Shown here: piece after piece, positions 14,541 to 23,996 of the stretch
Position numbering within the stretch: the first letter of the stretch is position 1
Layout: every line of letters begins with the position of its first letter
Source: Candidatus Eiseniibacteriota bacterium
Lineage (GTDB): Bacteria; Eisenbacteria; RBG-16-71-46
Assembly: GCA_033853925.1 (NCBI GenBank)
Contig: JAWOLC010000001.1
Location: 4,658 to 68,657, forward strand
Reading direction: 5' to 3'
DNA: 64,000 nt
Notes under the pieces: generated by a model
Databases searched by the model: none
What the model saw: the letters and a program-made list of their open reading frames with translations, nothing else
What the model was told of the DNA's origin: nothing
Translations under genes and position numbers: made by a program

Positions 14541-16046
14541 ATGCTCCCCGTCATGCGAGACGCGATCGTCGCCCTCTTCACCCGCACCTTCGGGCGCCGC
14601 CCGGAGGGGATCGAGCGGCTGGCCGCCGACGGCTCCCAGCGCCTCTACTACCGGCTGACCGGCGCTCCGCCGGCCTCCGTGATCGGCGCCTTCGGCCCCG
14701 ACGCGGACGAGAACCGCGCCTTCCTGTCGTTCTCCCGCACGTTCCGCGGCCTCGGCCTGCCGGTCCCGGAGATCTACGCCGCCGACGACAACCTCGGGAT
14801 CTGGCTGGCCGAGGACCTGGGCGACACGACGCTCTTCCAGGCGGTGTCCAGCGCGCGCGAGGAGGACCGCTGGCCCGGGAGCCTGGTGGAGGCGTACGGG
14901 CGCGTGCTCGACCTCCTGCCGCGCTTCCAGGTCGAGGGCGGCCGCGCCATCGACTTCGGCGCCGCCTATCCGCGCGCGGCCTTCGACCGGCAGTCCATGC
15001 TGTGGGATCTGAACTACTTCAAGTACCACTTCCTCAAGCTGGCCCACGTTCCCTTCAGCGAGCAGCTCCTCGAGAACGACTTCCATCGGCTCATCGAGCA
15101 TCTCCTCACCGCGGAGGCGGGCTACTTTCTCTATCGCGACTTCCAATCGCGCAACGTCCTGCTGCGCGGCGGCGCGCCGTGGTTCATCGACTACCAGGGT
15201 GGCCGCCGGGGCGCGGCCCAGTACGACGTGGCCTCGCTGCTCTACGACGCCAAGGCGAACGTCCCCGAAGGCGTGCGCGCGCAGCTCCTCGCCCGCTACG
15301 TGAGCACGTTCTCGCGGCTCGCGGACGTGGACCCCGGGCGCTTCCTCGAGACCTACCGGGGCTTCGTGCTCATCCGCATCATGCAGGCCATGGGCGCGTA
15401 CGGCTACCGTGGGTTCTTCGAGCGCAAGCCTCGCTTCCTGGAGAGCGTCCCCTACGCCGCGCGCAACGTGGCCGGACTCCTCCGCGCGGGCTTGCCGGTG
15501 GAGCTGCCCGAGCTGGAGTGCGTTTTCCGGCGCATCGTCGAGACCTGGGCCGATCGTCCCGGCCCGCTCGCGTCCCCGGGCCTCACCGTCCACGTCACGA
15601 GCTTCAGCTACCGGGACGGCCCGCCACTGGACGAGATGGGGCACGGCGGGGGTTTCGTCTTCGATTGCCGCTCGCTGCCCAATCCCGGTCGGTTCGCCCA
15701 GTACTCCGGCGTGAGCGGCGAGGACGCCTCGGTCGCCCGCTACCTCGAGGCCGTGCCGGAGACCGAGGCGTTCTGGAGCCACGTCGTCTCGCTCGTCGAG
15801 GCGCACATCGCCAGCTTCCGGCAGCGGGGCTTCTCCGACCTCAGCGTCGCCTTCGGCTGCACGGGCGGCCAGCATCGCTCCGTCTACTTCGCCGCGCGCC
15901 TGGCCCGCCATCTGCGCGAGCGCCACGGCGACCTGGCCGTGCGCCTCTGCCACGCGGCGGAGGCCTGCTGGACCGTCGCGGCGGCCGAGCCGAGCGCGCC
16001 GCCTCCCGCGGAGCCCGTCTCCGGAGATCCCTGGTGGAGGGGATGA
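14541..16046 (+). CDS. Fusion protein: an N-terminal AmgK-like anomeric MurNAc/GlcNAc kinase domain (aminoglycoside-phosphotransferase fold) joined to a C-terminal RapZ C-terminal domain
   Basis: The N-terminal half has an APH-family Brenner motif YRDFQSRNVLL and a DYQ metal-binding motif. The C-terminal roughly 150 aa (VHVTSFSYRDGPPLD...GGGFVFDCRSLPNPGR...VAFGCTGGQHRSVYFAARLARHL) aligns with the RapZ C-terminal domain of E. coli (FDVRFLPNPHW...AIGCTGGKHRSVY). The stop overlaps the start of the downstream MurU-like gene. Confidence 0.6.
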   Translation: MLPVMRDAIVALFTRTFGRRPEGIERLAADGSQRLYYRLTGAPPASVIGAFGPDADENRAFLSFSRTFRGLGLPVPEIYAADDNLGIWLAEDLGDTTLFQAVSSAREEDRWPGSLVEAYGRVLDLLPRFQVEGGRAIDFGAAYPRAAFDRQSMLWDLNYFKYHFLKLAHVPFSEQLLENDFHRLIEHLLTAEAGYFLYRDFQSRNVLLRGGAPWFIDYQGGRRGAAQYDVASLLYDAKANVPEGVRAQLLARYVSTFSRLADVDPGRFLETYRGFVLIRIMQAMGAYGYRGFFERKPRFLESVPYAARNVAGLLRAGLPVELPELECVFRRIVETWADRPGPLASPGLTVHVTSFSYRDGPPLDEMGHGGGFVFDCRSLPNPGRFAQYSGVSGEDASVARYLEAVPETEAFWSHVVSLVEAHIASFRQRGFSDLSVAFGCTGGQHRSVYFAARLARHLRERHGDLAVRLCHAAEACWTVAAAEPSAPPPAEPVSGDPWWRG

Positions 16047-16762
16047 TCTTCGCCGCGGGCCTGGGATCCCGGCTCGGAGACCTCGGGCGGACGACCCCCA
16101 AGGCGCTCATCGAGATCGGCGGCCGCAACATGCTCGAGCGCGTGGCAGAGCAATTGGTCGCGGCGGGCGCGCGGCGCATCGTGGTGAACGTGCATCACCA
16201 GGCCGGGCGGATCGAGGAGTTCCTCGCCGGGCGCGATCTCGGCGTCGAGGTCCTGGTGAGCCGCGAGGAGGAGCGTCCGCTCGAGACCGGCGGCGGCCTG
16301 CTGCACGCGCGCGCCCTCTTCCGCGGCGACGACCTCATTCTCCTGCACAACGTCGACGTCCTCAGCGAGGCCCCGCTCGCCCCGCTCGTCGCCGAGCATC
16401 GGCGGAACGGGGCGCTCGCCACGCTGGCGGTCAACGAGCGGGAGACCGCGCGCTACCTGCTCTTCGACGACCTCGGCCTGCTCGGCCGGGAGGATCGGCG
16501 CCACGGGCTCCGGCGCGAGGTGCGCTCGCCCCGCGGCCCGGTGCGGACGCTCGCGTTCGCCGGAATCCACGCCTGCTCCCCGGAGCTGCTCGACCTCGTC
16601 ACGGAGCGTGGAGTCTTCCCGATCGTGGACGTCTACCTGCGCCTCGCCGCCGCCGGGCGCGTGATCGCTCCCTGGCCGCTCTCGCGCGACCTGTGGATCG
16701 AGATCGGGACGCCGGAGCGCCTCGAGGCGGCACGCGCGCGCCTCGAGAGGATCGCTCCCTGA
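16043..16762 (+). CDS. Sugar-1-phosphate nucleotidyltransferase, MurU-like (N-acetylmuramate alpha-1-phosphate uridylyltransferase candidate)
   Basis: ATG at 16043 overlaps the upstream stop (ATGA). MIFAAGLGSRLGDLGRTTPKALIEIGGRNMLE is the G-rich NTP-transferase signature. It is paired with the AmgK-like kinase as in the AmgK-MurU recycling bypass. Confidence 0.65.
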   Translation: MIFAAGLGSRLGDLGRTTPKALIEIGGRNMLERVAEQLVAAGARRIVVNVHHQAGRIEEFLAGRDLGVEVLVSREEERPLETGGGLLHARALFRGDDLILLHNVDVLSEAPLAPLVAEHRRNGALATLAVNERETARYLLFDDLGLLGREDRRHGLRREVRSPRGPVRTLAFAGIHACSPELLDLVTERGVFPIVDVYLRLAAAGRVIAPWPLSRDLWIEIGTPERLEAARARLERIAP

Positions 16763-16890: not shown

Positions 16891-16966
16891 GCGGGCATAG
16901 CTCAGTTGGTAGAGCGCGAGCTTCCCAAGCTTGAGGTCGCGGGTTCGAACCCCGTTGCCCGCTCCA
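16891..16966 (+). tRNA. tRNA-Gly (anticodon CCC)
   Basis: Cloverleaf folded by hand. Acceptor GCGGGCA/TGCCCGC, D arm GCTCAGTTGGTAGAGC, anticodon loop TTCCCAA, T arm GGTTCGAAC, encoded CCA end. Confidence 0.85.
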
Positions 16967-17091: not shown

Positions 17092-18386
17092 ATGCCTTCG
17101 CCGGTAGTCGCGATCATCGGCCGGCCGAACGTGGGCAAGTCCACGTTCTTCAACCGCGTGCTCGGCGAGCGCCGGGCCGTGGTCCACGACCGGCCGGGCA
17201 TCACCCGCGACCGCAACACGGCGCGGGCGGAGTGGGCGGGGCGGTCGTTCCTGCTCGTGGACACGGGTGGCTTCCTGCCGGGCGCCGCCGAAGGGCGCGA
17301 CGCGCACGTCCGCCGCCAGGCCGAGATCGCCATCGCTCTCGCGCAGGTCGTGCTCTTCCTGGCGTCACGGACCTGGACCAGGCCATCGCCCGCGACCTGC
17401 GCAAGCGGCGGGCGAGGAGCCTGCTCGTGGTGAACAAGGCGGACAAGCCCGGCGACCTCGCCGCCCACGACTTCCACCGGCTGGGGCTGGGCGAGCCGCT
17501 GCCGGTCTCGGCGGAGAGCGGCCTGGGCATCGGCGATCTGCTCGACCGGACCATCGCGCTCCTGCCCGCGCCGACCGGGGAGGAGGAGCGAGCCGGCAAG
17601 CGGGTGGCCATCGTGGGCCGGCCGAACGTGGGCAAGTCGTCGATCGTCAACGTGTTGCTGCGCGAGGAGCGGGTGATCGTGGAGCCGAAGCCGGGCACGA
17701 CGATGGACGCCATCGACACGGAGTGGAAGACGCCGGCGGGGACGTTCACCCTCGTGGACACGGCGGGCATCCGCCGGCAGTCGCGGTTCGAGGACGAGGC
17801 CGAGTTCTACGCCGTGGTGCGGGCGCTGAATGCGCTCCAGCGCGCCGACATCGCCTGCCTGGTCGTGGACGCGACCCAGGGCTTCCTCAGGCAAGAGGCG
17901 CGCCTGGCGCACGACGCCCTCGAGGCGGGCTGCTCGTCGCTGCTCGTCTACAACAAGTGGGATCTGATCGAGGATCGCGAGGAGGCCTGGAAGCGGCTGT
18001 CCCGCGAGCGGGAGGAGCGCTATCCGACGCTCGCCGATCTGCCGGCGACGCCGGTTTCCGCCACGGCGAAGATCAATCTCGGGCGGCTGCCCAAGCTCAT
18101 CCTCCAGCGGGCCGAGGAGCACGCCCGCAAGATCCCCACCCGCGCGCTGAACGCCTGGCTGCAAGACGTGCAGAAGACCCGCGCCGTGCCGGCCACGCGC
18201 GGGGGCCTCTCGGTGAAGCTCTACTACATAGCCCAGACGGGCACGGGGCCACCCGAGTTCACGCTCTTCGTGAACCATCCGCAGCGGCTCTCCGACAACT
18301 ACCGGCGCTTCCTCTGGAGCCGCCTGGCCGAGGAGTTCGACTTCCACGGCACGCCGGTGCGCCTGCGCGTGCGGAAGAGCGAGTGA
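17092..18386 (+). pseudogene. der: GTPase Der (EngA), interrupted by a frameshift near 17362 (possible sequencing/assembly error or a genuine lesion)
   Basis: GD1 ([23 protein letters not shown]...DTGG) is in frame 1 from ATG 17092. From about 17362 the protein continues in frame 3 ([15 protein letters not shown]...[10 protein letters not shown]...GD2 [13 protein letters not shown]...KH-domain) to the TGA at 18386. Between VVLFL and GVTDLD about 5-6 expected codons are missing, consistent with a 13- or 16-nt deletion. Confidence 0.7.
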
Positions 18387-18388
18387 TC

Positions 18389-19027
18389 ATGCTCGTCGCC
18401 CTGGTCGGCTGTCTCGCCATCGCCTACTTGAGCGGCTCGCTGCCCTTCGGCCTGTGGGTCGGCCGGCTGGCGCGCGGCGTGGACATCCGCACGCTGGGCT
18501 CGGGCAACCTCGGCGCGACCAACGTCTACCGCTCCCTCGGCCCCGCGCTCGGCGTGCTCACGCTTCTCCTCGACATCGCCAAGGGGGCCCTGCCCGTGTG
18601 GCTCCTGCCGCAGGCCCCCTGGGCCGCGGCCTTCCCCGGCGGGCCGGAGTGGTGCCGTCTGGCGGTGGGCCTCGCCGCGGTGGCGGGACACGTCTGGACC
18701 TTCTTCGCCGGCTTCAAGGGAGGCAAGGGAGTCGCCACCACGGTGGGCGTCCTGCTCGCCCTCGCGCCGGCGGCCTTCGGCGTCTTCGTGCTCGTCTTCC
18801 TCCTGGTGGTGGCGACGACGCGCTACATCTCGCTGGGCTCGACCCTGGGTGCCGCGGCCTTCGCCGTCGCCCTGGCCTTTCTCGCGCCGCGTGGCGTGCG
18901 CAGCCCCACGTTCCTCCTGGGGGTGGCGCTGGCGCTGCTGGTGATCGCGCGGCACGGCGACAACTTCCGCCGCCTCGTCCGGGGCGAGGAGCGGCGCTTC
19001 TCGTGGCGTGGAGGGAGATCCTCGTGA
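18389..19027 (+). CDS. plsY: Glycerol-3-phosphate acyltransferase PlsY
   Basis: MLVALVGCLAIAYLSGSLPFGLWVGRL...GSGNLGATNVYR...FKGGKGVAT is the PlsY signature. ATG at 18389 is 2 nt after the der stop. Confidence 0.85.
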   Translation: MLVALVGCLAIAYLSGSLPFGLWVGRLARGVDIRTLGSGNLGATNVYRSLGPALGVLTLLLDIAKGALPVWLLPQAPWAAAFPGGPEWCRLAVGLAAVAGHVWTFFAGFKGGKGVATTVGVLLALAPAAFGVFVLVFLLVVATTRYISLGSTLGAAAFAVALAFLAPRGVRSPTFLLGVALALLVIARHGDNFRRLVRGEERRFSWRGGRSS

Positions 19028-20013
19028 GCACCGTGGCCGTGCTGGGAGCGGGTTCCTGGGGGACGACCCTGGCCATCCACCTGTGCCAAGCGGGAGCCGA
19101 GGTCAGGTTGTGGGGCAACGTGCTGGAAGACCTGGAGCAGATGCTGGCGATCCGCGAGAACCGGAAGTTTTTGCCTGGCATAAGGCTTCCCGATGGGGTT
19201 AAGGTTCTGCCCGAACTCGAGGGGGCGCTGGAGTCGGCCGACTTCACGTTCTACGTGGTGCCGTCCCAGGCCGTTCGCGAGGTGGCCCGGAAGGTGGCCG
19301 CCACCGGGCTCGGGAGTCAGGCCGTGTGTGCGGCCAAGGGCCTCGAGCTCGGCAGCCTCGCGCGCATGAGCCGGGTGCTGGAGGAGTGCCTCGGGGAAGC
19401 TCACGCCGTGATCCTCACGGGGCCCAGCCACGCGGAAGAGGTGAGTCGGGGAATCCCGACTTCGGTGGTGGCGGCCGCGGACGACGAGGAGCGGGCGCGC
19501 GCGGTGCAGGTGTTGTGCTCCACGCGAGCCTTCCGTGTCTACACGAACGACGACGTGGCGGGCTGCGAGTACGGGGCGGCCCTCAAGAACATCATCGCCA
19601 TCGCCGCCGGGGTGTGCGACGGCATTGGCTGGGGAGACAACACGAAGGGGGCGCTGCTCACGCGCGGGCTGGCCGAGATCTCGCGGCTGGGCATCGCCCT
19701 GGGAGGAAGACGCGAAACCTTCTTCGGGCTGACGGGGATGGGGGACCTGATCGCCACGGCCATGAGCCGCCACAGCCGCAACCGGTATCTCGGGGAAGGC
19801 ATCGGCCGCGGCCAGACGCTCGCCCAGACGCTCGAGAGCATGGTGATGGTGGCCGAGGGCGTGGCCACGGCGCAGGCCGCACGGGAGCTGGGCCGCGCGC
19901 ACGGGGTGGAGCTGCCCATCACGGAACAGGTGTGCGCGATGTTGTTCGAGAACCGCAGCCCGCGCGAGGCGCTGCAGGCGCTGATGTCGCGCGACCTGAG
20001 GAGCGAACAGTGA
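19024..20013 (+). CDS. gpsA: NAD(P)H-dependent glycerol-3-phosphate dehydrogenase
   Basis: GTG start at 19024 overlaps the plsY stop (GTGA). VAVLGAGSWGTTLAIHL...NDDVAGCEYGAALKNIIAIAAG fits GpsA. der-plsY-gpsA is a conserved linkage. Confidence 0.85.
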   Translation: MSTVAVLGAGSWGTTLAIHLCQAGAEVRLWGNVLEDLEQMLAIRENRKFLPGIRLPDGVKVLPELEGALESADFTFYVVPSQAVREVARKVAATGLGSQAVCAAKGLELGSLARMSRVLEECLGEAHAVILTGPSHAEEVSRGIPTSVVAAADDEERARAVQVLCSTRAFRVYTNDDVAGCEYGAALKNIIAIAAGVCDGIGWGDNTKGALLTRGLAEISRLGIALGGRRETFFGLTGMGDLIATAMSRHSRNRYLGEGIGRGQTLAQTLESMVMVAEGVATAQAARELGRAHGVELPITEQVCAMLFENRSPREALQALMSRDLRSEQ

Positions 20014-20686: not shown

Positions 20687-20763
20687 CGGGGCGTAGCGCA
20701 GCCTGGTAGCGCACCTGCATGGGGGGCAGGTGGTCGCTGGTTCAAATCCAGTCGCCCCGACCA
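20687..20763 (+). tRNA. tRNA-Pro (anticodon GGG)
   Basis: Hand-folded. Acceptor CGGGGCG/CGCCCCG, anticodon stem CCTGC/GCAGG with loop ATGGGGG, T loop TTCAAAT, encoded CCA. Confidence 0.8.

Positions 20764-23919: not shown

Positions 23920-23996
<77 letters not shown>

Follow-up and report, generated by a model that had tools for sequence, protein, structure and literature searches.

The der locus and its neighborhood

The window, by which we mean the whole 64-kb stretch of DNA that was analyzed (G+C content, 72.5%), contains a split copy of der (engA), the gene for a ribosome-assembly GTPase, which direct translation reads first in frame 1 and then in frame 3 (Table 1). The 5' part of the gene encodes the G1 (GRPNVGKS) and G3 (DTGG) motifs of G-domain 1 together with most of strand beta4, and it runs on into an out-of-frame tail that is unrelated to Der and that matches exactly the tail of a protein in the public collections, P0215. 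The 3' part, whose first glycine corresponds to residue 96 of an intact 436-aa Der, encodes helix alpha3, the G4 motif (NKAD), the remainder of G-domain 1, the whole of G-domain 2, and the KH-like domain. When the two pieces were compared with the NCBIfam Der equivalog TIGR03594, the N-terminal piece matched profile positions 1 to 88 with 118.9 bits, and the C-terminal piece matched positions 92 to 432 with 337.1 bits, which exceeds the curated equivalog cutoff of 306.7. In the Pfam searches, MMR_HSR1 was found in the N-terminal piece, and MMR_HSR1 and the EngA KH-like domain (PF14714, KH_dom-like) were found in the C-terminal piece. The locus therefore specifies the domain architecture of Der, a tandem pair of GTPase domains and then the EngA KH-like domain; it does so not in one continuous open reading frame of about 436 codons but in two frames, 1 and 3, with 16 nt missing.

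The two halves were joined into a 431-aa query and searched against a collection of 5.8 billion proteins. The nearest full-length proteins were 77 to 86% identical to the query and mostly 436 aa long, and they came from metagenomes and Candidatus Eisenbacteria-like MAGs; the best match in the genome collection was a Candidatus Eisenbacteria MAG (65% identity).

Table 1. Features at and around der in the window (positions are those of the window)
Feature	Position	Strand	Description and evidence
tRNA-Gly(CCC)	16891..16966	+	Just upstream of der; ARAGORN; Rfam RF00005, 70.4 bits
der, 5' part (frame 1)	17092..17361	+	Met1 (ATG 17092) to Leu90; translation
Leu90 codon (ctg)	17359-17361	+	Last in-register der codon of frame 1
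Deletion junction	17359..17362	+	16 nt lost between CT (17359-17360) and GGC (17361-17363)
der, 3' part (frame 3)	17361..18386	+	Gly (ggc 17361-17363) to natural stop (18384-18386)
Out-of-frame tail of N-terminal fragment	17362..17433	+	23 residues, then TGA (17431-17433); translation
P0024, truncated public call	17427..18386	+	319 aa; 100% identical to C-terminal piece; coordinates from length and stop
plsY	18389-19027	+	Downstream of der; intact; Pfam G3P_acyltransf; single-frame tblastn
gpsA	19024-20013	+	Intact; Pfam NAD_Gly3P_dh; single-frame tblastn

The gene order der-plsY-gpsA is common to the window and its relatives. Upstream of der, the window differs from three of the relatives' contigs (L085, L086, and L087): in these, miaA lies directly upstream of der, whereas here a kinase/NTP-transferase gene pair (14541-16762, plus strand) and the tRNA-Gly gene lie between the two. 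One gene of this pair encodes a 501-aa protein in which an APH-family kinase domain (PF01636, residues 24 to 260) is fused to a RapZ C-terminal domain (PF22740, residues 348 to 466), and this gene overlaps by ATGA with the MobA/NTP-transferase gene (16043-16762). We take the pair to resemble the AmgK/MurU-type sugar kinase/nucleotidyltransferase pair, the fusion to RapZ_C being presumably unusual. On the other side of the locus, two tRNA-Pro genes (GGG and CGG anticodons) at 20687-20763 and 23920-23996 are interspersed in a conserved block of MerR, acyltransferase, GT2, SurE, PCMT, and acylphosphatase genes downstream of gpsA.

The 16-nt deletion and the residues that it removes

Searches of the window by tblastn with three intact orthologues placed Der residues 1 to 90 in frame 1 (17092-17361, 86 to 92% identity) and residues 96 to 436 in frame 3 (17361-18383), and residues 91 to 95 were absent. 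In a DNA alignment with three relatives (L081, L082, and L001), the window has a single clean gap of 16 columns, and in the protein alignment it has a gap of five residues relative to every one of the 15 intact relatives. The missing residues there conform to VD[AVG][KRQH]T and are flanked by VLF[LM] and G[VIPA]TDLD. At the DNA level, the relatives read CTCTTC-ATGGTGGACGC(C/G)A(G/A)GAC(C/G)-GG(G/C)GTGACC or similar at this point, and the window reads CTCTTC-CT-GGCGTCACG. The exact placement of the deletion is ambiguous by at most 2 nt, as GG could flank the deleted block on either side, and this GG is also the most microhomology (about 2 nt) that is possible around it. As these alignments show, the lesion in der consists of the loss of codons 91 to 95 (V-D-x-x-T) plus one base, that is, 16 nt, with a consequent shift of frame.

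These results bear on several points of an earlier, sequence-only reading of this DNA. Its central claim, that der is frameshifted from frame 1 into frame 3 at 17340-17380, is confirmed by translation, by the TIGR03594 matches, and by tblastn. It had put the size of the deletion at either 13 or 16 nt, of which the DNA alignment with three relatives upholds 16 and disposes of 13, and the alignment of the two halves to Der orthologues that it had proposed has now defined the missing stretch as these 16 nt. It had also described the missing residues as five or six, VDxRxG; five are indeed lost (V-D-x-x-T), but the glycine is not among them, since the Gly that follows is retained. Its statement that frame 3 starts 2 nt later was mistaken, because the two frames actually share one base, 17361.

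Three of the five missing residues (V91, D92, and T95) do not vary among 18 intact relatives. In the AlphaFold model of the closest intact relative (mean pLDDT of 81, rising to 90 to 92 in the junction region), residues 86 to 92 form strand beta4 of G-domain 1, residues 93 to 98 a loop, and residues 99 to 110 a helix. Judged by this model, the deletion is predicted to take away the last two residues of the core strand beta4 and the start of the next loop, besides shifting the frame. With VDAKT restored, the 436-aa protein aligns from end to end with Bacillus subtilis Der (PDB 2HJG, 436 aa; E = 3.5e-101), ungapped across the junction, and the block corresponding to the missing residues is VNGRE in that protein. 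EngA is essential, and its function in vivo needs the integrity of both G-domains (PMC4245960). Because of this dual requirement, and because core residues are lost, the der allele as written would be expected to be null.

We also considered whether the change of frame is decoded by programmed ribosomal frameshifting, or by some other form of recoding, to give full-length Der; the sole point in favor of such decoding is the overlap of two open frames at this site. For a -1 shift, a slippery sequence of the form X XXY YYZ is required, and the junction, CTC TTC CTG GCG TCA, has no such heptamer; nor, when read directly, does it have a +1 shift-prone motif. The fold of the 99 nt downstream is no more stable than that of shuffled sequence (z = -0.62), and in the Rfam search only the upstream tRNA, and no known recoding element, was found. 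No frame change occurs in the 15 to 18 close relatives, and 80 genome loci each gave one continuous match. Moreover, a shift would still leave the product five residues short at the end of a core beta strand, and three of these are invariant, whereas recoding keeps the protein complete. Recoding can therefore be considered effectively excluded, and the doubt that the sequence-only reading had cast on a programmed frameshift, having seen no slippery heptamer, is borne out by the junction, by the fold, and by the relatives.

Origin of the deletion

Two approaches were used to look for further lesions of this kind. Called genes from the relatives' contigs L082, L086, and L087 served as tblastn probes, and each of 22 orthologous genes across 5.0 to 26.4 kb aligned in one frame along essentially its whole length; der was the only split gene among the orthologues probed. 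In addition, the whole 64 kb was tiled in all six frames for codon usage with a self-trained model; besides der, the only same-strand switch that lacked a stop boundary was near 23.6 kb. The candidate second frameshift at that site was rejected, the switch being from an intact PCMT-type methyltransferase gene to a tRNA-Pro gene. The lesion in der is thus isolated in the 64 kb.

The coding sequence on either side of the junction is otherwise free of signs of decay: neither half of der has additional stops or shifts. When private substitutions were counted, defined as departures of one sequence from a residue that all the others in the alignment share, the Der of the window had 1 in 195 otherwise invariant columns, compared with 0 to 3 in close intact relatives and 6 to 12 in distant ones. 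An established pseudogene would be expected to have several lesions and relaxed constraint, and here there is a single lesion, with substitutions in the range of intact relatives. The absence of other decay argues against the suggestion that der is a fixed pseudogene in this lineage, its function being supplied by a second der copy or by some other compensation, because the further lesions and substitutions expected of such a gene have not accumulated. TIGR03594 is used as a single-copy bacterial marker. Among the relatives that we examined, each has a single intact der, in the conserved der-plsY-gpsA context, and there is no second der in the 64-kb window, the extra tblastn matches being the two G-domains matching each other. 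The point that speaks for a compensating copy is that the search for a paralogue covered only these 64 kb of the genome, and on balance a fixed pseudogene seems very unlikely. We likewise give little credence to the wider proposition that the 16-bp deletion is the true fixed state of the gene, with Der dispensable, replaced by an undetected paralogue, or working as two separately translated pieces. The deletion would have a bearing on whether Der is essential in an uncultured phylum only if the reads proved it to be fixed.

We consider it likely, without being certain of it, that the deletion arose as a local error of assembly or consensus and does not reflect the living population. We draw this conclusion because der is essential, because both of its G-domains are required, and because local errors occur in uncurated MAGs at a published rate. 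All short-read assemblers occasionally make local errors that no read supports, and 13 such errors were found in one 1.13-Mb genome, or about 1 per 87 kb (PMC7111523, Chen et al. 2020). Many purported bacterial pseudogenes are assembly artifacts (PMC11017572, Cooley and Wright 2024). By this calculation, one defect in 64 kb would be close to the number expected, and the 22 single-frame orthologues and the tiling of the 64 kb show the defect to be isolated and about as frequent as is typical of uncurated MAGs. The deposited contig, from a Candidatus Eisenbacteria-like MAG, has a single isolated 16-bp deletion in der, which shifts the frame and leads gene callers to give a 113-aa N-terminal stub and a 319-aa C-terminal piece; according to our interpretation, the organism itself would carry an intact, single-copy, 436-aa der.

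Other assemblies were examined for independent coverage of the locus. A PlsY protein identical to that of the window is encoded on two other public contigs, L083 and L084. The first, L083, is from the Logan assembly of run SRR16529308, begins inside der at 18252, and is 100% identical to the window over 18252-19756; because of this identity, SRR16529308 is probably the source run of the MAG. The second, L084 (positions 1 to 1399), is from the NCBI metagenome GCA_037932185.1 and is 99.07% identical to the window over 17715-19113. Both contigs end short of the junction at 17360. The differences between L084 and the window number 13, and all of them are inside der, with 10 falling within the first 80 nt of L084; 6 of the 11 changed codons are nonsynonymous, including one that changes the otherwise invariant Phe265 to Val. 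These differences are probably contig-end or strain-mixing noise in that assembly. L084 was accordingly dropped as a gauge of selection, its differences being clustered at a contig end and altering an invariant Phe, and the private-substitution test described above was used in its place.

Searches for either allele of the same population gave little more. Look-ups of exact products, using P0024 and the product of the upstream NTP-transferase gene, yielded no further contig with the junction, and a junction-centered search of the 5.8 billion proteins yielded no Der of the same population except the stub P0215. A pattern for both alleles with species-specific flanks had 0 matches in JGI metagenome DNA. 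The sole JGI match to a degenerate pattern for the deleted allele, L088, was a chance match in an unrelated gene, and neither blastn nor tblastn showed it to resemble the window or Der. An intact der copy from the same population was not found in any collection searched.

The main alternative, possible if less probable than not, is that the deletion is present in a real DNA molecule that does not represent a viable established genotype. The molecule could stem from a very recent mutation, from a minority allele that the assembler happened to follow where strains were mixed, from a single copy in a polyploid cell, or from relic DNA. As a rule, the k-mers that De Bruijn graph assemblers put out have been seen in reads, and graph assemblers in general need read support for the k-mers across a junction. 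For some pipelines, a 16-nt deletion without read support would therefore be unusual, and this leaves room for a real allele. The microhomology of about 2 nt (GG) is compatible with a spontaneous illegitimate deletion, the absence of other decay is as much in keeping with a very recent event as with an artifact, and there is strain variation within der, as seen in L084 (99.07% identity, with its differences confined to that gene). The Logan assembly of the probable source run is also fragmented in the der region, which suggests that the assembly graph branches there as a result of strain variation in the SRR16529308 sample. On the other hand, an essential gene should not have a null allele common enough to become the consensus, as we infer from the essentiality of EngA (PMC4245960), and the deleted allele did not turn up a second time in the JGI metagenomes or in the protein collection. 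An error of assembly or consensus remains the explanation that we prefer. The sequence-only reading had offered several causes without committing itself to any one of them, and these included the two that we judge likeliest, an indel from sequencing or assembly and a disabling mutation of recent date.

Der in the public record and comparison with known systems

The deletion is present in the public record. P0215 is a 113-aa protein identical to the N-terminal piece of the window, including its out-of-frame tail, and P0024 is the 319-aa truncated call of Table 1. Both come from one 132,951-bp NCBI contig, and each is known as a single sequence on a single contig. Because the public collection holds both fragments, the lesion was not introduced in preparation of the window. 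It had been anticipated that annotation would either split or drop the gene, and the two public calls (113 aa and 319 aa) show that it was split. Within der, in the segment 17410-17429, a chance Shine-Dalgarno-like GAGGAG lies 7 nt upstream of an in-frame GTG at 17427, which would account for the gene caller having begun the 319-aa product there and not at the GTG at 17232.

Der is also broken in other public records. Truncated or frameshifted Der calls (P0166, P0133, P0138, P0183, P0207, and P0209) occur on contigs of 38 kb to 7.4 Mb in unrelated assemblies, and one broken Der call, named hypothetical protein, is in the genome of a Micromonospora isolate. A recurrent breakpoint was considered and rejected, as the other split Der calls on long contigs break elsewhere. 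Broken der calls are a recurring database artifact, and we count the occurrence of split calls at unrelated positions in other assemblies as support for an artifact here as well.

The finding is an ordinary one and biologically minor, and its chief value lies in the correction of annotation. The der of this organism is carried publicly as two proteins, one of them a 113-aa stub that ends in a nonsense tail and the other a 319-aa protein truncated at its N terminus, and both are already in large collections. As the C-terminal piece passes the TIGR03594 cutoff, marker pipelines will count der as present and miss the defect. Reads that show an intact gene would call for a correction of the record, and the gene should be flagged as a pseudogene otherwise.

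Compared with known systems, the product of this locus is like Der/EngA as seen in B. subtilis (PDB 2HJG) and in Escherichia coli EngA on the 50S subunit (PDB 3J8G), in that it has two Era-like G-domains followed by a KH-like domain, and it differs from them in that no single open reading frame encodes the protein and a 16-nt deletion lies in G-domain 1. Genes that are expressed by programmed frameshifting, such as prfB (+1) and dnaX (-1), share with it two overlapping frames that are both needed for a conserved protein; unlike them, this der has no slippery sequence, no stimulatory structure, and no conserved shift, and conserved residues are missing from it. The lesion is also like the local errors and spurious pseudogenes of draft genomes and MAGs, being one isolated indel that breaks a gene on a contig otherwise clean, in a gene whose loss is not plausible, and at a matching frequency; at 16 nt, the deletion is larger than the 1- to 2-nt homopolymer errors typical of long-read assemblies.
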